Assembly: GCA_000091205.1 (NCBI GenBank)
Contig: AP006497.2
Source: Cyanidioschyzon merolae
Taxonomy: Eukaryota
Reading direction: 5' to 3' (one strand)
Length of the DNA stretch: 64,000 nt
Shown here: positions 1-55,762 of the stretch, piece after piece
Position numbering within the stretch: the stretch's first letter is position 1
How the letters are laid out: each line of letters starts with the position of its first letter
Translations under genes and position numbers: made by a program
The notes under the pieces: model-generated
The model's input: only the letters and a program-made list of their open reading frames with translations
Databases searched by the model: none
Told to the model about the DNA's origin: nothing

Positions 1-1270
1 TGCCTGTAGGATATATATCGTCTACTGAACAATGCAACTAGAACTGGATTCCTCTTTCGGGTCAGTCGTACCGCAGTTTGCAGATCGTTAGGGAACACTG
101 AACTGAACAAGTATATGCGCTCCGCGCCAAAACCCGATATTCTCAAAGCGTGCTTGCGTTCACTAGCGGAGAACGACCCGTCGACCACCTTACGGAAAGC
201 AAGAGCGACAATAGTAGCTGCCGTAGACGTCCCAAATTCTCCACACTTTGTTTGTAGGGTCCTGAAAACACTAGGATAAAGTCATATAAAAAAGTCCTAG
301 TTCGCGGACAGCATTCTTCGGATGATATCGCAACGACAGCGTTCCTGGAACGTCTCGATCGGTATGAAGCACAGGGACATGGGCTTGTTTTTCCAGTTGA
401 TGAGACTTGCTTGGAACGAACCGAACGGTACATATTTGAATATTTGCGGAGAAGAGTGCCCTTTATATGTTCGATCTAGCTCGAAGAGAATGAGGACGTC
501 ATCTTCTGTTCTATCCGCAGTGGATACGATTCGCAGCCTCGATTTCGCGCACAGAGAACGCTCATACAACAGGATTCGCTTCGTCATATCATTGAAGAAG
601 ATTCCGCGGACGTTTTGCAACGTTCTTCTATCGGACAACATGGCATTTAACCATTCCTGTTGCGATCGAGTTTTTGCCGATTCTATCTGGGTTACTGCTG
701 CTTTTCATTCATCCGCACACTCCGTGCTCCAAGTCTATCCAGAGGATGTTTTCTATCACGAAAAGGCATGATCGCTTTACGGAGCGAGTGTCAGCAGCTT
801 TCAGCACATGGTGACACTGGGGCAGATATCGTCTACCTTCCGCAAATCCGTCCTCCTCGGGGAAGGTACGCACCAAATGGCATAAACAACTGTGTTCATT
901 TTAAAAAATTACGGGATGAGCTAGGATGCACATTTCAGAAGGTCGGGATGAAGAAAAGCCCGTGGAGCGCTTCGGCGCTAGAAAAGCACAGAGAGCTGAC
1001 AGCGCACCAAACGGGACGGAGGGTACGACGTCGAGGAATCCTTGCATGGATGCGTTCAACCAGTTGCAATCAATGCATGGTATTCGGGAACCGACACTTG
1101 AACGCCGCTATCAATGCCAGCTGATGTGTGCGGTGCAGAAGACGCCACCCGAGGCGCTGACGCGATCCAACTTGTATGCCACAGCCCCTCAGTCTCGAAG
1201 TGTACCTGGATACATCGAAACCGATTGCAGTCTCTCGAATAATAAAAGCAAGGAAGCATCGGCGAGAGTA
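1..1270 (+). mobile_element. TnpB/Fanzor-like (IS605/OMEGA-family RuvC + zinc-finger nuclease) element remnant, copy A; 5' end truncated by window edge
   Basis: Nucleotide homology (~75%, with indels) to the reverse complement of ~53465-54800 is traceable by eye over the whole span. Shared blocks include ctccgcgccaaaa..gatattctcaaa, aaaaaagtcctagtt, gcagtggata, gctcatacaacag, cattttaaaa..ggatgcaca.ttcag.aggtcg and aacgccgctatcaa. The encoded peptide carries TnpB hallmarks: an RuvC-I-like SVLSAVDTIRSLDFA, the zinc-finger CNQC and an RuvC-III-like NRHLNAAINAS. Confidence 0.6.
322..1124 (+). pseudogene. Fragmented TnpB/Fanzor-like ORF (two overlapping frames, 322-771 and 660-1124), probably inactive
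   Basis: ORFs 322..771 and 660..1124 overlap in different frames, so a frameshift is present. The RuvC-III motif reads NRHLNAAINAS where RDxNAAxNI is expected, so the catalytic Asp is replaced by His. Relative to copy B a 2-bp (tg) indel places a stop directly after INAS. Confidence 0.5.
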
Positions 1271-1696: not shown

Positions 1697-3133
1697 ATGG
1701 GAGAGCATCGGGTGAACGTGGCGTTTACGTTGGCACCAGTGCAGCCGCCCTGCTTCTCCAGTTATCTGAATGTGACTCGAGCTTGGAGCGCCGATGCCGC
1801 AAGCCGTGCGACGCGTTTCCGGTATCAGGGTACGTCACCGTACCCGAGACAGCGAACACTGTTTCTGAACTTTTTTCATCGACAGGACATGGTTCCGTGC
1901 GGGTTTGCAGCGCTGCACCCATATCACCGGACCTGCAGGTGGCGCCGATCTTTCATAAAAAGCGCTCGCTCCTGCTGCGCACGAGCGGAAGCTATCGCGC
2001 GCGAACATCCACCAGCATCACATGAACCGCTAGTGCGCTGCAACGGGAAGGCTTCGTGCTTCGGGGCCCGCCGAACACGACCTGGTGTAGCGGGAGCCGC
2101 TGGGGCTCCGCGCTTCCCCGGAGCGCTCAGGGCGCACCCCGTGACCGCGAGTCTCGGCATCGCGCTGGTGCTTTTACTCGCGGCGTTGCACAGTCCGTCT
2201 GTCGCAAGCGCGGCCCCAGTTTTCCACGCCAGCAACCTACAAAGCCTGGGCACTAAGATGCTTCATTCCTTCGCATCGGGTTACGCATCGTCGCTAGCAC
2301 TGGTTTTCTTCTCCGAGCTCGGGGACAAGACTTTCTTCATCACCGCTTTGCTGGCCATGAAGTACCATCGAACGTCGATTTTCATTGGCGCCATTGCGGC
2401 GTTATCCCTGATGACCATGATCTCCGTGGTGCTAGGTCAACTCTTTCACGCGCTTCCACCGCTTGTGACGTCATATATCCCATTCGATGACTGGGCAGCG
2501 TGTGCCCTGCTAATCTTCTTTGGCGTATCAAGCATTCGACAAGGTTTGAAAGCGCGAGCAACACGAGCTGGTCCAGGATCGAAAGCAGAAACACCAACAT
2601 CGCTCGACAGCAGCAGTGCCGGCGCATCCGAGCGATCAGGGACGCTTTCGGATTCGAGGTCTACATCTGCGCAAGCTGAAGAGCTTACGGAAGAGGCAGA
2701 AGCAGCGAAATTCATTCGGGAACGAGAGGAGCGTTTGCTGAGCACCAGAAGCCGCCCGGCCTCTGCAACAAATACGCAGATGAGCGACAAGACGCGCGAG
2801 CATCCCCGTCTGAGCCAGGCAGGTGCCGCGCTAGCCGCCATAGCGATGCCGCTAGCATCACATGCGCAGCTCGCTGCTGTCGTCGAAGCGTTCACGCTCG
2901 TCTTTCTCGCGGAATGGGGTGATCGCAGCATGCTCGCCACGATCGCGCTCTCTGCAGCAAAGAATCCTTTTGGAGTAACGGCCGGGGCGATCAGCGGACA
3001 TCTGGTCGCTTCACTCCTGGCCATTCTTGGCGGAAGTGTTCTCGGGCGATACTTTAGCGAGCGCTTCGTTTCCCTAGTCAGCGGCGGGCTGTTCATCGTC
3101 TTTGCCGTCATGACTTTGCTTGGAGTTTTCTAA
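1697..3133 (+). CDS. GDT1: GDT1/TMEM165 (UPF0016) family Ca2+/Mn2+/H+ transporter
   Basis: Two copies of the family signature E-x-G-D-(K/R)-(T/S) are present: [18 protein letters not shown] and [24 protein letters not shown] long acidic Ser-rich central loop separates two hydrophobic halves. ATG at 1697 checked; the first ~190 aa are not typical for the family, so the real start may lie further downstream. Confidence 0.8.
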
Positions 3134-3832
3134 GCGATGAAAATCGTGGTGCAAGTGGCGAGTATGCGCTGGGCATACGAATCGAGCGGGTCGCAAACAA
3201 AAAAACCGACTCGTTAGTCGCTTCAGGTCGGCAGCTATTTGTTGAAGCTTTTTGTGTAACATGGATGCCGGTATCAAACATGTTGTCGAGTGTAGGGCTT
3301 TTCGCCCGTTTCGAGCTTGCGCTGTGCTATAAGCTAACGTATGCATGGATCAAAATTTTTTATATGGGCGAAATCAGCGATGCATCTGGTCGCTGAGCCC
3401 GTACCATACCTATGTTGCCACTTGAGTGCATTAGGAAAGGTTTCTGCCTACGTCTACGTCAGTCCCATGATGCGACGACGGATGCATTCGCCTGCAGGTG
3501 CTCTCATATCGGCTACTCGGGATGCTCACGCCATGGCGCAGCGAACGTCTTTGAACAAAGCACGGGCACCGTTGCAGCGCATGCTCGTTACCTATAGTGG
3601 AAACCTCACCCCGGTAAACTCGACCTGTTGTTTGCGTGCTGCCGCCAAATCCGAGAGACACGGGAGCGACCTCGCTCACCCCTGTGAAGCATGTATGCAT
3701 CTTGCTATGGAGGAACTTCCCCCGTCCAAACAGAGAATAGAAGCTCCAGTAAACTGCGGTACGGGCAATGCACTTCTCGCCAGGATCAGTCGTCGCGACC
3801 GCCTTTTTCCACGCCAGTCTCCTGAGGTTGTA

Positions 3833-5035
3833 TCATCGGGGAGCAGGGCGGCGGGATGCCTTCCTAGCCAGTCCGTGCTGTTGCGCTTGGAGTGTCCCTA
3901 TTTCTGCGAGATCTGCAGGCGCTTGCCAGTACAAAGGATTGCGCTCCAGAATGCCCCGTAGAATCGGGGATAATATGGAGTGCTTCGCGGCTTGCGCATC
4001 GACTCTTCTTCCGCGCAGCAGCAAGAGACATTTGTTATGAACACCTAATCCGGCCCAGGACGGGCAGTCACCGACCTTGATATGCTCCATGGATGCGGCA
4101 GCATCGGCTCTGTCATCCGCCCAATCTAGATTTGACTGCTTCTGCACCTGTTCTGCTGCGACTTTGTGCCAGGAGCGCATCCACCACCAGGGAGAGGGCA
4201 ACCGCAGCACGCGCTTCCAGGCTGGTACGCTGGGCGGCTCCGCTGGATGGATCTCATAGAGTTCAAATGCACCGCTAGCAAACGGGGTGCGCGATCTTGT
4301 CAGAGGTCGAACGTAAAGCGATAGTCGCAGGGTATTCTCGGACGCAAGTGGACGCGTGGACGGCCAAGCCGTTGCCCGCGAGTCGATGCGCTGTTTCCTA
4401 GACCGTTCAAAACGCGTCGAGTCCGACTCGGGCGTGAGGCTGGCTACCAGCTGCCTCGCGTTACCGCTACTGTCGCCTTGCTCGGCAACCAGTTTGAACG
4501 TGCCACTTGCATCGTGCACAAACGTCAAAACCTGATAAGGGTAGGCCAGCAGGAATGCAGCGCCCTCGCGACACCACTTGACTGCGTGGATGTGGTCGGT
4601 ATCGTCGATACGCTGCAAGTCGTTTCCCGCGGCACCAAGCGTGCGACTTGTTCGCACTGGTCTAAAAGCGAACAGCTTTCGACAGAGAACCGTCTGGGAG
4701 GCAAGCGGTGCCGTTGCACCAGAGCGAGCAGCAGTCACCAAGGGCGACTGTGACGCAGCGAGCACGCGACTCGTTTCGAAACCCTCCACGCGGGCGATCA
4801 AAGCACCCGAGCTCAGGTTGAATAGCTCACCCGAGTACGCCCAGTGAACAGTGCTTTCGTTGTGGTTTGGATGAAAGCGACGTCGCAGAAACGTGTTCCA
4901 GGAGTCTGCTCGTCTACGAGAAAGCGGCAGCGTCTCGCTCTTATGAGGTTCCGTTGGTGCCGTTGCAGACGGTGAGGTTGGGGTTGGTTCAGCGGCTTGC
5001 GCAACGATCAAGCTCGGTTTTAGGCCTTTAGTCAT
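3833..5035 (-). CDS. Hypothetical protein (no recognisable domain); N-terminal poly-Leu region encoded by a (CTG)n run
   Basis: The 431-aa ORF on the track starts at a GTG (5128). The first in-frame ATG is at 5035. No family motif recognised. Long ORFs are common in GC-rich DNA, so this is uncertain. Confidence 0.35.
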   Translation of the reverse strand: MTKGLKPSLIVAQAAEPTPTSPSATAPTEPHKSETLPLSRRRADSWNTFLRRRFHPNHNESTVHWAYSGELFNLSSGALIARVEGFETSRVLAASQSPLVTAARSGATAPLASQTVLCRKLFAFRPVRTSRTLGAAGNDLQRIDDTDHIHAVKWCREGAAFLLAYPYQVLTFVHDASGTFKLVAEQGDSSGNARQLVASLTPESDSTRFERSRKQRIDSRATAWPSTRPLASENTLRLSLYVRPLTRSRTPFASGAFELYEIHPAEPPSVPAWKRVLRLPSPWWWMRSWHKVAAEQVQKQSNLDWADDRADAAASMEHIKVGDCPSWAGLGVHNKCLLLLRGRRVDAQAAKHSILSPILRGILERNPLYWQAPADLAEIGTLQAQQHGLARKASRRPAPR

Positions 5036-20097: not shown

Positions 20098-20928
20098 TCA
20101 AAACCTCATGCCGAACGTTCCCTGACCTTGTCGCGTCGCATCAAGAAATTCGAAGGAAGGAACAGTCACGCCTGGTTCGTGGCCAGCGACGGAACCGCAT
20201 TCGACAACAGCAGCGTGATAGCACTCGCGTGTCACGCTCCCCAGAGCTTCCGTCGGTACAGATTGCATGGAAACGAGCCTTGGAAACGGACTTGAGTCAT
20301 CGCAGTGATCGCTTTCTCTGGGGAATCCGTCATCGTTTTGCAGGAAGCGTGCGTAGATGGATCGAAGTCTCTCTACTTGTTCTCGTAAGGCGATGCTGCT
20401 TCCGGTGCTTATTTCATCATGGACCACAGCATCGTACTCAACACATGCTTCGTTGAATAGAGCAGCATGCGCTGGTATCTGCTGCGGACATGGTACTCGA
20501 CGAATGAGCATCGCTCCAGAGAAGCAACCCCTGAACGTTGGGTATGGCGTCAGGCGCAGAGACGCAGCAGAGCGCATGGACGGGAGTCGTCGGTGCCCAA
20601 CGACGTCATGTACGGAGCGGTGAAGTAGGTGTTCGCAGGCCACACAGAGTCGTTCTTGGAGAAGCATCTCTGGCGGACACGTATCTCTAAGCACCTGAAC
20701 AAATCCAAGCGTCAACGCGACGACGGGCGCACCCAAGCTCTGAACCCAAAACATGAAAGCGCCAGTCGAAACGTAGATCACAACGAACGTCGACGCATTC
20801 AATACGTCGCCACCAGCCAGAAAAGTAAAAGCATACGAACTTGAATGTTGGTATGAACATCTTTCGCTACTGCAGAGAACGGAGCTGGATGAAAAAAGAG
20901 AGGCATCTGGAATGAACGCTCGCGACAA
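20098..20928 (-). CDS. Hypothetical ORF (weak)
   Basis: The track start is TTG and the first ATG lies about 60 codons in. No motif recognised. Listed only because this ~2 kb stretch has no other candidate. Confidence 0.2.
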   Translation of the reverse strand: MSRAFIPDASLFSSSSVLCSSERCSYQHSSSYAFTFLAGGDVLNASTFVVIYVSTGAFMFWVQSLGAPVVALTLGFVQVLRDTCPPEMLLQERLCVACEHLLHRSVHDVVGHRRLPSMRSAASLRLTPYPTFRGCFSGAMLIRRVPCPQQIPAHAALFNEACVEYDAVVHDEISTGSSIALREQVERLRSIYARFLQNDDGFPRESDHCDDSSPFPRLVSMQSVPTEALGSVTRECYHAAVVECGSVAGHEPGVTVPSFEFLDATRQGQGTFGMRF

Positions 20929-24590: not shown

Positions 24591-25571
24591 TTACCGACGA
24601 TGAATCGGAAGCAGTGCCTGGTTCCAGGCAAGAGTCCAGTGGTCGCTATCCTGGTCATTGATTGCTTGTTCGGAAGTATTCCGAATTGGAGCAAAATGCT
24701 TACACCGAATACGAAACGCTTCCCGCGAAGCTTCGCTCCATGCAATGCTGGTGGAAGCTCCACAAAGCACGAGACACGAACGTATGTCCCTAGCGGCCTT
24801 CAAGTCTCGATGCGGAAAGTGCTCGTGTGCCTGTGTTCCGATGCAATTCCACCTTAGTAAGGCATTGACGTGCGTATGCCTCACCAGGTGACATTCGGTC
24901 AGGTTATTCTCGTGCGTCAGCGCAAGCGACTGTCCCTGTTTGACGCACCTCTTCTCTAACTGTTTCAGAGCATATTGCTGCTCGTCATGCGCGAATGTCG
25001 TCTGGAATTCATCGATGGCATTCGTACAGAGTCGATTCTCGCATTCGAGGTACGATCTCGTTAACGGTGCCAGTCTACGACGTATTCGCACCACAGCACG
25101 CCCGGCGTCATTGACGACAACCACCAAAGGATGCGACTTGCCGATTGTTTCCTTTTCCAACACACTGAAAAAGTACGCGAATGAACGCTGCTTGCTCTTT
25201 TGCGACAGCGACCGTTGGCGCGCACAGCGCTGTCTCATAGGCTCCTGCCAAGGAGCTTCCGCCCGGGTCACGAGAACGCTCGTGTTCACTCTGAACGCAG
25301 CGTAGAATCCACGACATACGTACTGACTTTCTCTGTGGCAGCAAGCTGGTGGCAGGTACAACGCCCACGCGGTGCGCTTCGTGACGCGCTCGACACTGAC
25401 CCGTCTCTGGTGTTGGCTTTTACGGTTGGTTTTGATGCTTTCTGGCATCAGCGCTGTTGATCTTCCGATCATAAGCTCGACATGGTAACGCTTCCAGGTA
25501 TTCTGGGATACGCTTGAGCGCAAGTCGCGGATGCGACGATCAGGCAGTATGCTATGTTCTGTACTGAGCAT
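24591..25571 (-). CDS. Hypothetical protein (Cys/His-containing, no assigned family)
   Basis: 326-aa ORF with a true ATG. No diagnostic motif. Confidence 0.3.
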   Translation of the reverse strand: MLSTEHSILPDRRIRDLRSSVSQNTWKRYHVELMIGRSTALMPESIKTNRKSQHQRRVSVERVTKRTAWALYLPPACCHRESQYVCRGFYAAFRVNTSVLVTRAEAPWQEPMRQRCARQRSLSQKSKQRSFAYFFSVLEKETIGKSHPLVVVVNDAGRAVVRIRRRLAPLTRSYLECENRLCTNAIDEFQTTFAHDEQQYALKQLEKRCVKQGQSLALTHENNLTECHLVRHTHVNALLRWNCIGTQAHEHFPHRDLKAARDIRSCLVLCGASTSIAWSEASREAFRIRCKHFAPIRNTSEQAINDQDSDHWTLAWNQALLPIHRR

Positions 25572-28650: not shown

Positions 28651-29293
28651 CGCATTAGAAACGCTTTCATACCTGAACAGGTACAGCCAAGAGCATTCTG
28701 ACTGTTGGACTAGCGTACACTCATTTCATCGTAAATAGGAAAAAGATCGACAATGACTATTCACAAGTATACACTAAAGCACTGGTACTGTCCCTATTGT
28801 CATCAACATCGGCCTTTGCTCGCCTTTTCTATGACTGCTTCCAGTTCGGATCTCTTATCTCCGGCTTCAAGTACGTCAGTTTCTCAAGTGCCTCCAGATA
28901 CGTTCTCAGCAGTCCACGGATGTTGATGGGAGCGTTCAAGTCCCGATTTTGGAGCTTTCGGATGGTGTCAACATTATTTATGTTCTGGTGCAAGTTGCGA
29001 TCTACGCTTCGCTGGATATAGATAGAGCTTCTCTATGGAGAACCTCGGTACACCCTTCGCTGCAGGAACACTGGGCCATGGTCAAGTCTTTGAACATCTC
29101 GACAACGTGTTGCCTCTTCCTGGGTCTGCCCCGTTGCACGTGGATGCTTGCTTCATCGCCCAGCACATGCCCTTGACCGGTACATAGGGCTTCCATTAAT
29201 GCCCCACTTCGTATCGATACTTGGTGCAGTCCACACCGGTGACGGGACTCCTTCTGGGCGATTTGCCAGGCGAGTACGCTTGAAGCTGCACAC

Positions 29294-29680
29294 GCAAGCG
29301 TACGCCGTTCTACTCGATAGATGATAAGCGGATTCCGATGTCTTCCATGATGAAACAGCAAGCGTACGCCGTTCTACTCGATAGATGAGAAACGGATTCC
29401 GATGTCTTCCATGATGAAACAGCAAGCGCGCGCCGTTCTACTCGATCGATGATAAGCGGATTCCGATGTCTTCCATGATGAAACAGCAAGCGTACGCCGT
29501 TCTACTCGATCGATGATAAGCGGATTCCGATGTCTTCCATGATGAAACAGCAAGCGCGCGCCGTTCTACTCGATCGATGATAAGCGGATTCCGATGTCTT
29601 CCATGATGAAACAGCAAGCGCGCGCCGTTCTACTCGATCGATGATAAGCGGATTCCGATGTCTTCCATGATGAAACAAGC
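29294..29680. repeat. Tandem minisatellite, 64-bp unit x ~6
   Basis: Unit gcaagcg[ta/cg]cgccgttctactcgat[a/c]gatgataagcggattccgatgtcttccatgatgaaaca, starting at 29294, 29358, 29422, 29486, 29550 and 29614. The short minus-strand ORFs here (MLFHHGRHRNP...) are created by the repeat. Confidence 0.95.
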
Positions 29681-31572
29681 ACCGGATGAAACATCCACGC
29701 TCGAGAACATGCTTAGATCTTTCGATCCATCTACGCTCCCTTCTTGCAAAGTGGCAGTGAACGCTCCCTTGCATCGATCGCTACGTGAATTCAAGTCCGA
29801 GTCCATGACCGGGTTCCATGTAAACAGAAGAGACGCGAGGTACTCGAAGTGTATGTATTGAACGGAATCATGCTGTGGTGGAAAGCCGTTTCGTCGATGT
29901 CTACGTAGAAAGGAGGATTTCTCTTTCTAACGGGATGGATGATTTCAAGTGGCAGGGTCAGTGAATGTTCTGCAGGCGCTTATGAAGAGGTTTCGATATC
30001 GAACGTCGAGCTTGTTTTCTTCGGCAGAACGGCGGCGCGCGTTGCTGCACCTGCATTCAGACTTGAAACACGAAGGTCAAAAAATGGAAGCATGCTCACT
30101 TCGATCATGTTCTATATCAAGAAAACGGGAAGACTCGGAACTTGCACATTTGCATTGTATCATCATGTCGGATAGTTCACGAATCTCTGTTCGAGGGTGT
30201 CTGGTACCAGATTGATTCCGGTGACGTTTCCACTTGGTGCGGCAAATCGTCGACAGAGCCACTAGGTTCCGGTCGATACCCCTTCAAACTGTGTATGAAT
30301 CCGCAAGCCGTTCCTGCGACACATGAAACGTCCAGACTGTACAGCTGGAAATAGTTTGGAAAGAAGCTCGAGTCCAGGAACACATCGTGCACTACAGTGT
30401 TCCATTTTAATATGAAACGGATGTTGAGGGTCGAAACGGGAAAATCAAAGCGTTCCGGTGACGTCAAACGCTTCGAATCGTGTTTGGGTATGTTCGTATC
30501 GTCATGTTTAGAGCAGTACGGCAGATCAGGCGTCTCGTTCGCCTTGAACGAAACCATTGGCAAGATACGCTTCATGGGTGGACATGGCGCGGTGCTACCA
30601 TTGTTCACGTGTCCCGCTATTGCCTAGCACTGTCATCCCTTCGATGATAATCTGGTAGAATGCAGACTACTCAACAGGGAATCATAAACGCTTGCGCTGG
30701 GGTCGGTGGCACTGCTTTCGTCGCTTCACGCCAGCTCTGAACGAAGGCTTCACCCCGTCCAGATTCTTGCGCCGATTTCTTTGAAGGCGATCCTGTCTCT
30801 GAAAGAGTCGAACTTCGTACTGGGACCGGTTCCAAGGCTTTTGTATCGGTGCTGCACCTATAGGTGCTCGAACGGAGAATCATCTATCGTCAGGGGCGTA
30901 CACCTTGAGCGCCTGCATGGAACGGCACAGGCGGGTCCGTCTTGCATCACCGACGAATGCCGAGCGTGTTTGTGCCGAATCCAGTATTTTCGTATCATCG
31001 GTGTAGAGGCTACTACAAAGAACAAGTCGAAAAACGGATGGAATCAGTGTCCGTAGATATTTAAGGGTGTATGCGGCTCGTCATGCAGAGCGCTTTTGAT
31101 ACAGACAGGCAGTCATGCCGGCATCAACGCCGGCGACGAATGCTCTTCGCTAGAAATACCCAGCTGGTTCCTGCTCTGCAAACAATTTTAGGACTATACA
31201 CGGCATCCGCTGAGCAGGAGTCCTCGCCTATCCCATGTGGTGTTGCGATGCATGGTCGCCTTATCGCCACTGGTTAGCGCCAGCGACGAGCGCAGAGACG
31301 CTTTCGAGTGTATGGCGAGAGGCATCTGCCGGCATTTAAGGCTCACGCGGGCGCTGTTAGTGAGCGATAAGTACAAATCGTATACTACATGGTTCACCAC
31401 GAGACGCCTTCACAATCGGGTACAGAGAGCGCTGCAGACAGCGCAAGTTGCCATGTTCACCAGCTGCTGCACTTTCTACCTCATCCGCGAGAGTCTCGGG
31501 CTGTTTCCACACCACGAGAAGCAGCAAAAGAGGCGATGCAACAACGGATCCTGGACGTGCGCCTGCTTGTCT

Positions 31573-40605: not shown

Positions 40606-41729
40606 GGATCGCGCTTACATACGCTCGTGTCCAGAGCAGCCCACACAGAACATGGAATATATCCCCGAGGATGATGAGGCCGTATTCCCGCCCGACCATC
40701 GATGCAGATGCGCGTAACGCCGGAAGCGCCTGTCCCAAAATTTGGCGCGAATCGCGCATGGACCCGTTTGCCGGTGCTACGTGCTGCTTTCGGATTTGCC
40801 TCTCTACTTTACTTGTTCTGTTTAACGGAGCGTTGACAAAGACCAAGCAGCTTGGATTGTGTGCTTGATATAAGCGATTGGAGGAGCATCCATGTCTCGA
40901 CATACCTCCAGGTTTTATGTCGTTTGCTTGTTCTCGTTTTTTTGTGCACGTTCTGGCGTGCGCCCGGTACCCGCAAGGAGCGACCCTGGTACCACGTACA
41001 ACAACGACGTGAATGGGACACGTAGACAGAATGCGTGTGGGATACCAGAGAGAGCGCCGGCTCTAGTTTGTTGATCTATTGACAGTCAAGCATAGGGCAC
41101 GGGGAACGAGTTCCAACTGGGAAGGAGGCTATGCTATCGCCATCTCGTTATGCATTAGGTGGATGATGACGCAGGGTAGCGTGAAGCGCGATGACCATTG
41201 ATTGATCCGACAGTGATTTCCTTAGAAACAATAAATAATGGTACACCATGATCTTGCGCTATTTGTTCATCAGAATCGTTACGAGTGTATACAGAGGGCG
41301 CCCCTGTCCTGCTGGATTGCTCAACGTACCGTGGCAGTGCCTTGCTCCATGCGGGAATCCAGTGCCCGCGGTTCTGGTACCTAATTAACTTTCATTGAAC
41401 CTCTTCAGCGCTTGAAGACAATCCCAGCGCTGAGTACCTAACGATTCCCTTGAGTGCTCAATTGATACGAAACCGCGGGACGTCCAAGGAGCAAATGCCA
41501 TTTCCGTACGTTGATCGATGCGTTCAGGTCTCGATACCGAAGGAGTCTGCGTGTATTGTTGTCGGCAGAATCGTACCGTAGCAAGTCTGTCGCACTCGAC
41601 TGCCGTGGTATCTGGCGTTCAGTCTGCTTACCGCGTGTCATCTCGTGCGTGCGGCTCTGTTCCAGATTCTTCTTCTCTACCCCAACAAGCGTACACTCGT
41701 GCTCGTAATTCTGGTTCGTCGCTCTGAAT

Positions 41730-42110
41730 CTATCGATGAACATCGTACAGTACGGATTCGTGCTTGCGTTGTAGACCCATCGTCGCAGATGCAGGAGTGC
41801 AGCCATTCCGCATCACAGCACAGTGAGCGCCATTGGCTACCAGCGAACGAGGTGACATGTCGATCATTTCCTCTCCCGACTCATTGAACACGTTGGTGAA
41901 CGCAGGCTTCTTGTCTCCGTCCGCTTGAGATAGAAAGACGGCGACTGCGGCTACGCGCTTCGAACGGAGATCCACGCTGACAACAAAGACTGTATGATCA
42001 TCTACCGTGAAATGCTGAAAAGGAGTCTCATCGCTCGAATCGGGCCGAGGTTCCATTACGAAATCGATATCGCATGAGTCTCTATATTGTCGTCGCAAAC
42101 TGCTTTCCAT
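41730..42110 (-). CDS. Hypothetical small protein (126 aa), only ORF in a ~2.6 kb gene-poor stretch
   Basis: ATG start. The composition is protein-like (..TPFQHFTVDDHTVFVVSVDLRSKRVAAVAVFLSQADGDKKPAFTNVFNESGEEMIDMSP..). No family assigned. Confidence 0.3.
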   Translation of the reverse strand: MESSLRRQYRDSCDIDFVMEPRPDSSDETPFQHFTVDDHTVFVVSVDLRSKRVAAVAVFLSQADGDKKPAFTNVFNESGEEMIDMSPRSLVANGAHCAVMRNGCTPASATMGLQRKHESVLYDVHR

Positions 42111-52156: not shown

Positions 52157-53446
52157 CTAGCCACGCATTGCCATGGAGCCTTGGTAAATTTTCAAAAGGT
52201 CCTCAACATCCCTGGGGCTTCCGCAAATGAACGGCTCTCGCTGATGGACATCTCGCGGAACAATATCCAGAATTCTTTGCTTTCCCGTGGTCGCTATACC
52301 GCCGGCCTGCTCCATGAGATACGCCATAGGTGCGCACTCGTACAGAAGACGCAACTTGCCGTTCGGGTTCTTCTTATCACCAGGGTATCCAAAAACGCCG
52401 CCGTAAATCAGCGTGCGATGGACATCGCCAACGAGAGATCCTATGTAGCGCGAAGAATAGCCCTTTTTCTTCATCGATCGAATATATTCTTGAAGAACAG
52501 GGTCCCAGTTATCCGAGTTTGCCTCGTTGAAGGAGTAGATCTTGCCACGCTCCGGAACACGAACATCTGGGTGCGTCAAAACAAACTCGCCAATCGCTGG
52601 GTCCAGAGAAAAACCCTGCACTCCGTGACCAATAGACAGCATGAAAATCACCGATGAGGAGTAGAGAATGTAGCCCGCTGCCACCAGATTCGCACCCGGT
52701 TGCAGCGTCTGCACGAGGCACTGCATTTGTCGCTGACTTATATCCGCGTCCTCGGGTCCCGTCAGACAGTGCTCGCCGCTGCGCATTACACCAAAAATCG
52801 TACCCGTGGCGATCGCTGCATCCAAATTCGAGGATCCGTCCAACGGGTCAAACGCAGCAATAAAGTCACCTGTATACGCCTCTTCCATGAGCGACACTGG
52901 CTCGTTTTCCTCTTCCGAAGCCAAGACACCTAGTTTCCCTGTTGAGCGTAGCGCGTTCTTGAGCACCTCGTTCGTCAACACGTCCAGCTTTTTCTGCTCC
53001 TCGCCCTGCACGTTGACCGAGCCCTGAAGGCCAGTCAAGTTGCTCACGCCCGCTCGGGCGACCAGTGAGGCAATCTGCTTGCCAGCTGTCGCTGTGGCTG
53101 TTATCAAAGGAGCCAAATCAGCGGTCTCTGGATGCTGCCTCTCCTGTTGGAGAACCCACTGTCCGAGTGTCATGGGTAGGTCTAAAGCTGCGCGCAGTCT
53201 CACTGCACCAAAGCGACGTTGATGCCTTGTTTCCAGCGGCAAGACCGACACCGATACCCTTCCCCATATGTTTGTTGAGCGCAGCTTAGGAGCCCCAAGG
53301 CTAACGAAAGCGTGCGGTGCTTGCTTCGCCATGAATATCGTTGCTGGCTCCTTGAGGTCAGCAAGGAGATGAGTGCTGCAAACGTCGGGCGTCGCAGCGG
53401 CGGGCACGGCCGCAATCGTCGACGGCGGCTCGATCGGCTGCCGCAT
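52157..53446 (-). CDS. FBP: Fructose-1,6-bisphosphatase, plastid-type with redox-regulatory Cys insertion
   Basis: FBPase blocks are present (..LTGLQGSVNVQGEEQKKLDVLTNEV.., ..GKLRLLYECAPMAYLMEQAGG..). The insertion EHCLTGPEDADISQRQMQCLVQTLQPGANL sits where chloroplast FBPases carry their thioredoxin-regulated Cys loop. An ~90-aa Ser/Ala/Arg-rich N-terminal extension is consistent with a transit peptide. The ATG at 53446 was verified; an alternative start (MAKQAPHAF..) is possible. Confidence 0.9.
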   Translation of the reverse strand: MRQPIEPPSTIAAVPAAATPDVCSTHLLADLKEPATIFMAKQAPHAFVSLGAPKLRSTNIWGRVSVSVLPLETRHQRRFGAVRLRAALDLPMTLGQWVLQQERQHPETADLAPLITATATAGKQIASLVARAGVSNLTGLQGSVNVQGEEQKKLDVLTNEVLKNALRSTGKLGVLASEEENEPVSLMEEAYTGDFIAAFDPLDGSSNLDAAIATGTIFGVMRSGEHCLTGPEDADISQRQMQCLVQTLQPGANLVAAGYILYSSSVIFMLSIGHGVQGFSLDPAIGEFVLTHPDVRVPERGKIYSFNEANSDNWDPVLQEYIRSMKKKGYSSRYIGSLVGDVHRTLIYGGVFGYPGDKKNPNGKLRLLYECAPMAYLMEQAGGIATTGKQRILDIVPRDVHQREPFICGSPRDVEDLLKIYQGSMAMRG

Positions 53447-53464: not shown

Positions 53465-54800
53465 AGCGAACTAGCTTCTGTTCTTTCGAGGGGGTACACT
53501 ACGACCCATCGGCAGATGCCTCCTCCAGGCCTTTTTCGACCGGCTCCTGCTATTCAGTTCATCTGCTCCGTGTAGACATCGATATTGAGAGGGTGCCTTA
53601 CAAAGGTAGAGGGCGTCAGCTCCGCGGGTCTCGTCTTCAGCACCGCACATCTGCTGATGTTGATAGCGGCGTTGAAGTCTCGGTTCAAGAATTCCAAGCG
53701 ATTATAGCATCTGGTGGAACTGATCAACGTAGGGGTTGCAAGAACTCGTGCCCTATGTGCCATTTGCTGCTCTTTCAGCTCTCTGAGGTTTTCAATCACC
53801 GAAGCGCTCCGCTGGATTTTGTCTTTCTCGACCTCCTGAAGTGTGCATCCCAGTTCATACCTTATTTTAAAATGAAAGCACTTGTTCATTTCCTTAGGTA
53901 AGGGCATTCCCGGGGCGAGAGGGACTTGCAGAAGAAAGACGAAACGTGCTCCAGCGTTACCGTGTGCTGAGCGCTTCAGCGATTCGCCCAGTGGAACGAT
54001 CGTTACGCCTCACGAACGGAAAGACTCCTTCAATGGCGTCGAGCCACGGTGTGTACGTAGTAATGAAATGCAACGCTACCTCGATAGAATTGGAAAAAGC
54101 TCGAACGCAAGGGGGATTTGTGAAACGCCACGTTGCCTATTGGAAGAACGTCTCCAGACATCAGTGTAAAAGCCTTCGATGGTTCGACGAAGTGTTTCGT
54201 GCTGTTGTATGAGCCTTCTGTACGAGCGAAATTTAATCCGCCACACATATCCACTGCTGCTAGAATAGAGAAGTTCGTCGTTCTCATCGAGTTCGATCGT
54301 ACGCATGGCAGGCTCCCTTTCCGCGAATACCCATATAGGCCCCGTTCTGTTCGCCCGAAGCAAGTCCCATCGACTGGAAAACAAACCGACGTCACTGTGC
54401 CTCGTATCGATGGTGACTTTCCAGGAACGCTTTCGTTGCGATTTCGGTGGATGATGGGTGTGAATAAACTAGGACTTTTTTTGTTACTGGATCGCAATGG
54501 TTCCAGGACCAGACGAAGAGGCGATTGAGAAACAGAGACGCTGCTCGCGGCTACTATTGTCGCACATGCATTCCGAACGGGATCAACGGGTCGTTTTTCT
54601 ATCATTGATAACAGTGAGTGTTTGAGAATATCGATTTTGGCGCGGAGTGTGTATCATTCGTTCTTTCAGGGCTCCTCAAAGATCAGAGCCCTGTGGTATG
54701 ACTGACCTGAACGGGGAATGCAGTACTCTTCGCACTGCTCTGGAAGGAATCCATCCGACATGCAAGTTGTCTACCATCTATAAGATACATTGCATACTGA
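53465..54800 (-). mobile_element. TnpB/Fanzor-like element remnant, copy B (inverted relative to copy A at 1-1270)
   Basis: The reverse complement aligns with window positions ~1-1270 at about 75% identity, through the coding part and ~100 bp beyond its stop. The encoded peptide retains RuvC-I-like SILAAVDMCGGLNFART and RuvC-III NRDFNAAINIS (Asp kept), but the zinc-finger CxxC is degraded (RCYNRLEF). The far boundary (>54800) is uncertain because copy A is cut by the window edge. Confidence 0.6.
53554..54605 (-). pseudogene. Fragmented TnpB/Fanzor-like ORF (54030-54605 and 53554-53907 in different frames)
   Basis: The two ORF pieces are separated by a frame change near 53907-54030. This is the same relative position as the frame change in copy A (about 660-771). 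The zinc-finger cysteines are lost. Confidence 0.5.
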
Positions 54801-55762
54801 TGCCGATCTCATGCTATAAACCGCAGCGAGGACCGTACAAAATAGCGTTGAAAGACTTTGAGTCCGATCATATTCCGTTTCCAGAGTCGTAGGAAGATAA
54901 ATACGGTGTCCATTGCTGTGCATTGCACCGAGTATCTCGCTTCCATGAAACGAATCAGAGTGAGCTGCAACTCCTACGTGTCGCCTGCTTGCTTGCTTGC
55001 TTGTTTGCGAGCCAATACGTATGTGCCACAGTGGAATGGTGCACCTTCGTGGCCACCTATGCATCGTATGACGTTCCGCAGCTAACGTGTATGCATCGCT
55101 GCAGACGCTTCGCGATGTCGAGCGACGGGATCGTACGGTGAAGGGATACCGGAGCATCCAGGGATGCAGCTCGCCCTCTCTACGACATATGGACGCGTTT
55201 CACGCACGCTGGAGGTCAACGTGCTTGAGTGACACTGTTTCTGGTTGATCCCTGCAGGCAGCGCAGCAGGAGGCTCAGCGTTTCTAGATCTAAACCAGGT
55301 CGAGTGCGAGCGGCACGATTAGAGAGCAGACCCTCCGTGGTGTGCGATACTCGCGTTCCGACGACTTGTGCTGCATAACGCTCCTCGAATACGTTCTCAG
55401 GTTACATCTTTAGTTTCGGTCCAGGTTGTACCAGCATTCGCCAAACTGTTGAAACTCGAAACTGATCTTTCGAAATCGCTGCGCTCGCCCGCATCGAGTC
55501 ACTTTCAGCCGGCCGAAACTTCACGACGGAGACCTAGTATTCTTCAGGGAGCCTCAATGCACCCACATTGTCATACGTTATTCACTTAACTGGCTAGAGT
55601 GACTATGGAAGAGCTGGTTCTGCAATGTCGGAAAACGCTTCCACAAAACGACGACTGGAGTCACGGCGACACCGCAGCATTCCAGCAAGCTGCTGCATCC
55701 CAGGGCATTGCGGAGAGGTGCACGTCGTGGATCCTTTGCGTACACGTCGGGTACTGCACGTC

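Follow-up and report, generated by a model that had tools for sequence, protein, structure and literature searches.

A decayed DNA transposon of Cyanidioschyzon merolae that probably once also bore a Fanzor gene

Results

Organization of copy A

The window, that is, the whole stretch of 64,000 nucleotides from Cyanidioschyzon merolae analysed here, begins with a frameshifted IS630/Tc1-mariner (Pfam DDE_3) transposase pseudogene at 27 to about 870, which is followed by a Fanzor-derived part at 918 to about 1270, both on the plus strand. The FBPase encoded in the window is 100% identical to that of C. merolae 10D. Positions 1 to about 1280 probably represent one copy (copy A) of an old, non-functional transposon family of this alga, with its 5' end cut by the window edge. 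The open reading frames at 322-771 and 660-1124 are present as described in the earlier note, where they were taken for overlapping halves of one protein, but they stem from two genes, the DDE transposase and the 3' end of a Fanzor gene.

The transposase reading starts with the N-terminal helix-turn-helix (HTH) remnant EQC..SGQSYRSL (frame 3, 27-80) within a part (1-114) recognised by homology to copy B (see below), which runs from the first base of copy A to 54764 in copy B. The reconstructed consensus of this stretch matches the IS630 profile from position 57 on. Since copy B and the related locus L003 can be aligned about 60-100 bp further upstream than the first base of copy A, the true 5' end of copy A lies off the window. 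The DNA-binding region (second HTH or winged helix; 115-279, frame 1, stop at 277-279) aligns to the intact transposase P0179 and to our consensus transposase, whose HTH_33 match in this region is marginal. The linker and the first catalytic Asp follow in frame 3 (288-479, stop at 477-479), where LVFPVDETC at 384-410 (Asp codon 399-401) matches the 'vfvDEt' start of the DDE_3 and IS630 profiles. The rest of the DDE core and the transposase C-terminus are read in frame 1 (445-870, in-frame stop at 769-771) and include SVLSAVDTIRSLDF at 505-546, the second Asp in LLSDNMAFNHS (625-657, codon 634-636), the Glu in LQVYPEDVF (727-753, codon 742-744) and the C-terminal stretch MVTLGQISSTF (808-840). 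This part was recognised with the IS630 model and P0179, and the DDE_3 alignment in copy B spans its equivalent.

Positions 871-917 form the junction, with the end of the transposase frame and the putative deletion breakpoint; homology to the DNA consensus of CMe-1A, the Fanzor1 family of this genome, starts at 916. The Fanzor1 3' remnant proper (918-1124, frame 3, stop at 1122-1124) corresponds to CMe-1 residues 612 to about 680, as indicated by tblastn with CMe-1, the Fanzor1 HMM and the CMe-1A DNA, and contains RGILAWMRS (1032-1058), SCNQC (1062-1076) and NRHLNAAINAS (1089-1121), all in frame 3. Comparison with copy B, L003 and CMe-1 traced the rest of the Fanzor1 C-terminus through 1125-1280 over frames 2, 3 and 2. 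A 2-bp insertion at 1125-1126 shifts the homologous reading to frame 2 for CAVQKTPPEALTRSN (1127-1171), which is followed by QPLSLEVY in frame 3 again (1182-1205) and then by KSKEASARV in frame 2 (1244-1270), the counterpart of RSKKTGRRL near the CMe-1 stop. Weak homology among the copies may extend to about 1335.

Nothing in copy A still works, because the transposase is spread over two frames with three stops and the Fanzor stub has no RuvC-I or RuvC-II, an Asp-to-His change in RuvC-III and the 2-bp frameshift. The earlier note had likewise regarded this copy as inactive, naming the Asp-to-His change and the 2-bp indel among its lesions. Both were confirmed, as copy B, L003 and the CMe-1 consensus all read NRDFNAAINI and the homologous reading resumes in frame 2 past the insertion. 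The lesions are even more numerous than listed there, with the three in-frame stops and at least two frameshifts in the transposase part, whose reading is split over frames 1 and 3.

Homology of the transposase part

Copy A by itself is weak evidence, and the assignment leans on copy B and on homology to external sequences. A six-frame Pfam scan of both copies with stops masked gave a sole match, a marginal one to DDE_3 in copy B, and the stitched copy A alone had no match in Pfam. The IS630 model NF033545 matched the stitched copy A (E=2.4e-5), the stitched copy B (E=1.4e-14) and the three-copy consensus (E=1.3e-25), and DDE_3 (gathering threshold 28.6 bits) gave 39.7 bits for the stitched copy B and 68.6 bits (E=6.9e-19) for the three-copy consensus. 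In this consensus the catalytic triad is found in order (SVDETCF, LLLDNVAFHH and NAIEGVF); in copy A its residues are split between frames 3 and 1. The consensus transposase is 37% identical to P0179 (E=1e-40), and P0179 also detects copy A by tblastn (E=3.5e-11). To judge from these homologies, the first two thirds of copy A are an IS630/Tc1-mariner DDE transposase pseudogene.

As in IS630/Tc1-mariner DDE transposases in general (PF13358, DDE_3; NF033545), the profile matches span the HTH region and the whole catalytic core, and the D, D and E are recoverable in the typical layout 'vDEt', 'llDNa.fH' and 'PpYsP..NpIE'. Unlike these systems, the window copies have no intact open reading frame and no detectable terminal inverted repeats (TIRs) or TA duplication, and a foreign gene fragment follows the transposase. 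A repeat search and local alignment against shuffles revealed no TIRs above chance in copy B or L003, and no target-site duplications were recognisable in the window copies and L003, so that the transposase is the sole ground for placing them in the Tc1/mariner superfamily.

The Fanzor-derived tail

In tblastn with CMe-1, the tail of copy A matched residues 612-707 (42% identity, E=7.7e-12) and that of copy B gave E=1.3e-26. The tail consensus is 62% identical in amino acids to CMe-1 residues 611-728 (copies A and B, 42-50%), and the tail of copy A is 72% identical to CMe-1A in DNA (E=1.3e-31). The Fanzor1 family HMM gave 31.2 bits for copy B and 11.7 bits for copy A at positions 548-590, with no signal upstream of 1011 in copy A. 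The tails also match the proteins P0023, P0024 and P0025, of which the latter two are members of the published CMe-1 family; Pfam on these three gave nothing relevant. The CMe-1 family profile found only Fanzor1 structures in the PDB (9cf0, E=6.9e-19; 8gkh, E=5.9e-12), the matches were collinear through RuvC-I, II and III, and in the 59-member family alignment the D, E and D show a conservation of 90% or more. Taken singly, the 117-aa tail ORF of copy B, P0024 and P0028 had no meaningful match among PDB sequences, and the family profile alone reached the Fanzor1 structures.

Among the catalytic motifs, RuvC-III is present, as NRDFNAAINIS (53685-53653) in copy B and as NRHLNAAINAS, with His for the catalytic Asp, in copy A, where the earlier note had correctly seen a RuvC-III remnant. 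The RuvC-I Asp (GxDxG / DPG) is absent from the copies, whose Fanzor homology starts at CMe-1 residue 611/612; the 'GADPG' motif lies about 180 residues upstream of this point. The RuvC-II Glu ('vDEfrTS') is absent as well. The breakpoint lies just past VDEF, with this Glu at or beyond it; instead of the VDEFR of the family the copies show C(V/F)HFK, and their significant Fanzor alignment starts only at (H)ELGC. A C4 zinc finger between RuvC-II and RuvC-III is likewise missing from the copies. SCNQC occurs in copy A alone; at the aligned position copy B has TRCYN, L003 has SGNKR and CMe-1 has SDGKK. The family consensus of this segment is RGLLWC.ST (RGLLALVSTT in CMe-1). PF07282 stayed below threshold in the tails: its best match (E=0.16) aligned 19 residues of copy B with the last 19 profile positions, and copy A gave none; sub-threshold matches to it occur in 13 of the 59 full-length family members.

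The earlier note had read the whole 1.27 kb as one TnpB/Fanzor-like protein with RuvC-I, a zinc finger and RuvC-III, broken by a frameshift. This reading is refuted by the profile results, and we regard it as almost certainly wrong. What stands of it is the Fanzor-derived tail with its real RuvC-III, and since DDE transposases and RuvC nucleases both have RNase H-like folds, a short motif resemblance is plausible. The TnpB architecture does not stand, because the IS630/DDE_3 profiles and an intact DDE transposase align to positions 27-870, and Fanzor1 homology is not seen before 916-918 (residue 611/612 of the 734-aa CMe-1), without any Fanzor HMM signal before 1011. The letters proposed as RuvC-I at 505-546 are there but fall within the DDE_3 match, the proposed CxxC zinc finger SCNQC exists yet is conserved in no relative, and the comparison with TnpB and OrfB_Zn_ribbon profiles gave no match at threshold. 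Compared with bacterial TnpB of IS200/IS605 and IS607 (PF07282, PF01385), the window element has in common the RuvC-III motif RDxNAAxNI; unlike them it has no TnpA partner (Y1 or serine), no RuvC-I or II and no zinc ribbon, its host is eukaryotic and its carrier transposon is of the DDE type.

Copy B and further copies

A second copy exists as the earlier note had claimed: copy A is 70% identical over 1189 bp (E=1.9e-136) to a segment at about 53572-54740 on the minus strand. Copy B extends over 53524-54860 (minus strand) and has the same composite layout, a transposase pseudogene at about 54710-53930 and then a Fanzor tail at 53859-53524. Its transposase reading shifts frame several times and Gly replaces the second catalytic Asp (PIGNVAFHKS), and its tail holds an open ORF of 117 codons (53554-53907) with the intact RuvC-III motif. 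An orthologue of copy B at locus L007 is 99.5% identical, with 13 substitutions in 2.6 kb. Five copies (A, B and three metagenome copies) have a common breakpoint and about 60-75% mutual identity; CMe-1A homology starts at consensus nucleotide 76/77 of the 3' 509-bp fragment in copy A (916), copy B (53858) and L003 (6016).

The open ORF of copy B raises the idea that the stub was retained for a function, either as a domesticated small protein or as a guide-RNA or right-end module acting in cis or in trans for intact CMe-1 Fanzor1 proteins encoded elsewhere in the genome. In metagenomes the ORF is found in eight variants, each 117 aa long and with 90% identity or more; among four copies, conservation of the tail (70-76%) slightly exceeds that of the transposase part (68-70%); and the guide RNA overlaps the gene 3' end in Fanzor and TnpB systems. 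However, these metagenome variants come from orthologous loci in strains that are almost identical (99.5% DNA identity), so the open ORF says nothing on selection. Moreover, the tail of copy A has a stop, the 2-bp frameshift and the D-to-H change, the tail of another copy (L008) is conserved less than its transposase part (59-61%), the stub is without two of the three catalytic residues, and Rfam gave no family at the gathering threshold over the whole window. Retention for a function is therefore very improbable in our judgement, and the window copies are likely too decayed for expression.

Intact relatives with both genes

A search for loci of relatives, with the three-sequence transposase alignment as query, showed that in 63 of the 80 loci fetched, relatives of the copy A/B transposase are followed by a full Fanzor1 gene in the same orientation. 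In L005 and L006, an intact transposase is followed after a 27-bp gap by a Fanzor1 scoring 689 bits. An intact element of 2,981 bp, which encodes a transposase of 297 aa and a Fanzor1 of 587 aa, recurs unchanged in three different flanks (L015, L017 and L018); in L015 its TIRs are 33 bp long (30/33 matching), and both termini carry TA. To judge from environmental data, one copy in the comparison set seems to have moved recently. Behind such a transposase, L033 and L011 carry Fanzors with 42-43% identity to CMe-1 over nearly full length, the best values among the fetched loci. The intact relatives are only 30-61% identical in the transposase, and their Fanzors are at most 43% identical to CMe-1.

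Discussion

The first 1.27 kb of the window are best read as a decayed Tc1/mariner-IS630-type transposon that formerly also bore a Fanzor gene, namely as an ordinary transposon fossil without a Fanzor nuclease gene. DDE transposases bind the terminal inverted repeats of their element and move it into TA sites. Fanzor1 is a eukaryotic TnpB homologue, an RNA-guided RuvC nuclease that cuts DNA with a guide RNA encoded at the 3' end of its gene, and by analogy with TnpB it has been suggested to help retain the transposon. The window copies are probably internally deleted, long-dead derivatives of a two-gene transposon that would have combined these functions.

The parent would have been a cut-and-paste transposon of the Tc1/mariner-IS630 type whose two genes lay on one strand. 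The first would have encoded an HTH and DDE (Pfam DDE_3) transposase of about 290 aa, and the second, following after a few tens to hundreds of bp, a Fanzor1 of about 600-730 aa. The breakpoint is common to the copies and was probably produced by a single internal deletion, reaching from just past the transposase stop codon to just past the 'VDEF' of RuvC-II in Fanzor. Such a deletion would have removed about 610 Fanzor codons and left the last 115-120 or so, with RuvC-III and the C-terminal tail. The deleted form, which kept its transposase gene, would then have spread to several loci, two in the window and at least three on related metagenome contigs, before all copies decayed neutrally, with frameshifts and stops, to their present mutual identity of about 60-75%. 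Since no full two-gene copy with a Fanzor of the CMe-1 lineage was found, the immediate parent is inferred, not observed.

On the other hand, the composite may be a chimera, in which independent IS630-like and CMe-1-type Fanzor elements were joined by nested insertion, truncation or template switching and then amplified, so that an intact two-gene ancestor never existed in C. merolae. Fanzor elements are often chimeric (Bao and Jurka, 2013), the tail is far closer to CMe-1 (62% in amino acids, 72% in nucleotides) than to the transposase-linked Fanzors that we fetched (38-40%), and another IS630-like remnant lies directly downstream of the tail in L003, where transposon remnants cluster. However, with Fanzor1 behind this transposase on the same strand in 63 of 80 loci, it is unlikely that chance brought the two together in this order and orientation, and the transposase-linked Fanzors of L033 and L011 match CMe-1 over nearly full length. 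Moreover, copy B and L003 have no 5' fragment of a Fanzor gene upstream of the transposase, and the breakpoint falls immediately past the transposase stop, as expected if the intergenic region and the 5' part of a second gene were lost. We thus consider a chimera unlikely and prefer the internal deletion.

The two-gene architecture of mariner and Fanzor1 has already been described (Bao and Jurka, 2013), and 'Fanzor1c-Mariner/Tc1' associations have been reported (Jiang et al., 2023). The inferred parent shares with PUl-1/PUl-2 of Pythium ultimum (Bao and Jurka, 2013) the order and orientation of a DDE_3-type 'Mariner' transposase, a short spacer (94 bp in PUl-1) and Fanzor1. PUl-1 was reported with TIRs and TA duplications, and TIRs are also present in the intact relative L015, where TA stands at either terminus. 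The sequence identity is low: the PUl-1 transposase is 24% identical to the reconstructed transposase (E=6e-13) and 27% to P0179 (E=3e-20), and its host is an oomycete whereas ours is a red alga. Unlike PUl-1, the window copies have lost about 610 Fanzor codons, are pseudogenes and show no recognisable TIR or target-site duplication.

Contrary to the earlier note, which called eukaryotic copies sparsely described, the Fanzor1 family of C. merolae itself was published in 2013 as CMe-1A, with about 150 copies, a 3169-bp consensus, a 734-aa Fanzor1, no TIRs and class unknown (Bao and Jurka, 2013). The window copies lie in the same genome, and both they and CMe-1A are without the canonical C4 zinc finger at this position. 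CMe-1A consists only of Fanzor1 and a 5' non-coding region of about 900 bp, whereas the window element has a DDE transposase upstream of the last sixth of a Fanzor. The 5' region of CMe-1A (910 bp) had no match in the window, so the composite contains no TE-N2_CMe or CMe-1A 5' sequence. Moreover, the divergence of the window copies is well above that of CMe-1A copies (about 80% identity to the consensus reported), so that the window element is a separate and older lineage.

Bao and Jurka (2013) left CMe-1 unclassified, as it has no TIRs and no transposase. It is possible, though the odds are slightly against it, that the composite copies are fossils of an origin in which CMe-1 began as cargo of a two-gene transposon of the Tc1/mariner-IS630 type and went on spreading after it had lost the transposase. 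If this were true, CMe-1 would gain a superfamily assignment, and the transposase-only and Fanzor-only derivatives of one parent would make a natural before-and-after pair, in which the part of each gene in persistence could be asked. The value of the finding is modest: the fossil ties the unclassified CMe-1 family of C. merolae to a mariner/IS630-type carrier, and in the comparison set one clade of DDE_3 transposases travels tightly with Fanzor1. Both points extend the associations published in 2013 and 2023 and open no new question.

Finally, Pfam gave no matches for the DDE-like remnants of a second family and for a 326-aa ORF at 24.6-25.6 kb in the window. For annotation, we recommend masking 1 to about 1280 and 53524-54860 as remnants of decayed DNA transposons; they should not be reported as Fanzor/TnpB nuclease genes or genome-editing candidates.

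Repeat copies and host genome

The intron-poor algal genome of the earlier note is that of Cyanidioschyzon merolae or a near-identical strain, because the fructose-1,6-bisphosphatase encoded at 52157-53446 (minus strand) shows 100% identity to the C. merolae 10D protein over 391 residues. Copy A of the element lies at 1 to about 1280 on the plus strand and copy B at 53524-54860 on the minus strand. The claimed second copy was recovered on the minus strand at about 53572-54740 with 70% identity across 1189 bp (E=1.9e-136), and a more sensitive search carried the alignment to window position 1, so the repeat is real and far above chance. In copy A, the ORFs 322-771 and 660-1124 are present as listed before, and the motifs then read as RuvC-I (SVLSAVDTIRSLDF, 505-546), a zinc finger (SCNQC, 1062-1076) and RuvC-III (NRHLNAAINAS, 1089-1121, directly followed by a stop) were all located.

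A transposase pseudogene joined to a Fanzor1 tail

The first 870 bp derive from a transposase. A six-frame Pfam scan of copies A and B gave DDE_3 as the sole, marginal match and no match to TnpB families. After stitching over obvious frameshifts, copy B matched the NCBIfam IS630-family transposase model (E=1.4e-14) and DDE_3 (39.7 bits, above the gathering threshold of 28.6), and copy A matched the IS630 model (E=2.4e-5). Metagenome contig L003 carries a third copy, and in the majority consensus of the three a transposase of about 287 aa becomes readable again, with an HTH region, the motifs SVDETCF, LLLDNVAFHH and PPYTPWFNAIEGVF, and stronger scores (IS630, E=1.3e-25; DDE_3, E=6.9e-19, 68.6 bits). 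This consensus shows 37% identity (E=1e-40) to P0179, an intact DDE_3 transposase of 295 aa, and is homologous to the published 'Mariner' transposase of the Pythium ultimum element PUl-1 (E=6e-13). Copy A keeps all three DDE catalytic residues (399-401, 634-636 and 742-744), but its reading alternates between frame 3 and frame 1 and is broken by three stops (277-279, 477-479 and 769-771). The supposed RuvC-I motif sits within this DDE domain, past the first catalytic Asp and ahead of the second.

The last ~350 bp are of different origin. Three database proteins matched the stitched copy B protein, all in its C-terminal ~100 residues only, and two of them (P0024 and P0025) bear the motifs GADPG, IDEFRTS and NRDFNAAIN. 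An exhaustive HMMER search with P0024 matched 1014 representatives, many of 600-700 aa; in an alignment of 59 of them, conservation reaches 90% or more at the D, E and D positions. The profile of these 59 had exactly two matches in the PDB, the Fanzor 1 proteins of Parasitella (E=6.9e-19) and Spizellomyces (E=5.9e-12), both collinear across RuvC-I, II and III. Matches to Pfam PF07282 stayed below threshold and were confined to 13 of the 59 members. P0024 and P0025 belong to CMe-1, a Fanzor1 family reported from C. merolae with about 150 copies, a 3169-bp consensus, a 734-aa protein, no TIRs and an unknown class (Bao & Jurka 2013). The tail is true Fanzor1 sequence, because the published CMe-1 protein aligns to 918-1205 of copy A (residues 612-707, 42% identity, E=7.7e-12) and to 53859-53524 of copy B (residues 611-723, 50% identity, E=1.3e-26). 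Thus, NRHLNAAINAS is a genuine remnant of RuvC-III in which His replaces the catalytic Asp. The reported 2-bp indel is a real insertion just after it, which moves the remaining C-terminus into frame 2. SCNQC is no relic of a zinc finger: at its position, copy B has TRCYN, L003 has SGNKR and CMe-1 has SDGKK.

In copies A (916) and B (53858) and in L003 (6016), homology to the CMe-1A consensus DNA sets in at the identical nucleotide, directly beyond the codons of the RuvC-II 'VDEF' motif and some tens of bp downstream of the transposase stop. This composite layout is common to five copies at different loci (A, B and the metagenome copies L003, L004 and L008), whose mutual identity is 66-70% over the transposase portion and 59-76% over the tail. 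Such star-like divergence is consistent with a single ancient burst of an element that already had the deletion, its copies decaying neutrally thereafter.

Intact two-gene relatives and origin of the composite

A Fanzor1 match was found at 63 of the 80 metagenome loci encoding relatives of the composite transposase, always downstream on the same strand and usually 40-300 bp off; only 7 of 63 loci with enough downstream sequence were without one. At two loci (L005 and L006), P0179 is followed after 27 bp by a same-strand Fanzor1 ORF (689 bits against the family profile). A complete mariner/IS630-type element of 2,981 bp (JGI metagenome contig L015, 1040-4020; also L017, L018 and L019) has 33-bp TIRs (30/33 matching), TA at both termini, and genes for a transposase of 297 aa and a Fanzor1 of 587 aa separated by a 57-bp spacer. 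It is probably mobile, recently or currently, in an uncultured organism, because copies with 100% identity occur in three or more different flanking contexts, and it could supply an intact Fanzor1 from an element whose ends are known. The best CMe-1 matches among the loci fetched are the Fanzors located 3' of such a transposase on L033 and L011 (42-43% identity over nearly the full CMe-1 length). The arrangement is the one previously published for the Mariner and Fanzor1 elements PUl-1 and PUl-2 of Pythium, summarised in the literature as a 'Fanzor1c-Mariner/Tc1' association.

We infer a two-gene mariner/IS630-type transposon carrying a CMe-1-lineage Fanzor1 as the direct ancestor in the Cyanidioschyzon lineage too; copies A and B would be internally deleted, long-dead derivatives of it. 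A chimeric junction could instead have brought the transposase and the tail together at the shared breakpoint; we consider this unlikely, and a deletion is the preferred reading. Independent internal deletions of the Fanzor 5' part are suggested in other lineages by two loci where the transposase is directly followed by a mid-gene Fanzor1 segment: L077 (2189-3290; HMM positions 430-530, gap -28 bp) and L087 (4001-4556; HMM positions 350-384, gap 25 bp).

As judged from their sequence, the composite copies have no present function. Their transposase is disrupted, their Fanzor stub is without RuvC-I and RuvC-II, and copy A, rightly regarded as inactive before, also lacks the RuvC-III Asp. An open 117-codon ORF in copy B recurs in metagenomes only because the contigs represent the same locus in 99.5% identical strains. 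Neither TIRs nor a target-site duplication were detectable for the window copies or L003, the 5' end of copy A being off the window, and Rfam gave no family match anywhere in the 64-kb window. C. merolae Fanzor1 and Fanzor1 within mariner-type transposons are both already published, and the composite is a new, degenerate example of a known element type; its sole point of interest, a modest one, is the link that it makes between CMe-1, a family without a class, and a carrier of mariner type.

Other transposon debris and CMe-1A elements

An open 326-codon ORF at 24591-25571 (minus strand) is a more diverged Fanzor1 remnant, with IDEFQTT (RuvC-II) and HRDLKAARDI (degenerate RuvC-III), a score of 60.9 bits over positions 433-587 of the Fanzor1 family HMM, and 34% identity to CMe-1 residues 497-685 (E=8e-18); it had no Pfam match and no detected transposase remnant adjoining. 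A short Fanzor1 fragment lies at 41471-41912 (minus strand; 15.3 bits, HMM positions 513-593; CMe-1 543-586, 41% identity). The stretch 28850-30150 (minus strand) probably represents a second family built like the composite copies; this is a motif-level observation only, because its DDE part had no Pfam match. This DDE-like remnant (PPFYVDIDETAFHH) matches sequence downstream of the L003 composite, contains six tandem copies of a 64-bp unit (29294-29677, 96% matches), and is followed after ~300 bp by an RuvC-III-like motif (NRDLNAPINIRG, 28957-28913). The second DDE-like family has left one more remnant at 20134-20529 (plus strand; FVASDGTAF ... GAYFIMDHSIV), which had no Pfam match and by tblastn (E=2.4e-5) matched the read-through tail of P0023, the third of the proteins that match the Fanzor tail. 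Old DNA-transposon debris is therefore unusually abundant in the 64-kb window for such a compact genome.

Outside the window, an inverted repeat (TGCCGCCA ... TGGCGGCA) and then a T-run lie within the ~59 bp that follow the stop codon of CMe-1, in the CMe-1A consensus 3' end (Bao & Jurka supplementary file 2) and at about 1050-1090 of contig L001; the composite copies retain at most a weak remnant. This feature may serve as a terminator, or may belong to a guide RNA or to the right end. L001 carries two tandem CMe-1A Fanzor1 copies (55-1047 and 2996-4423; 88% mutual identity, repeat period ~3.4 kb), the second of which reads through 441 codons.
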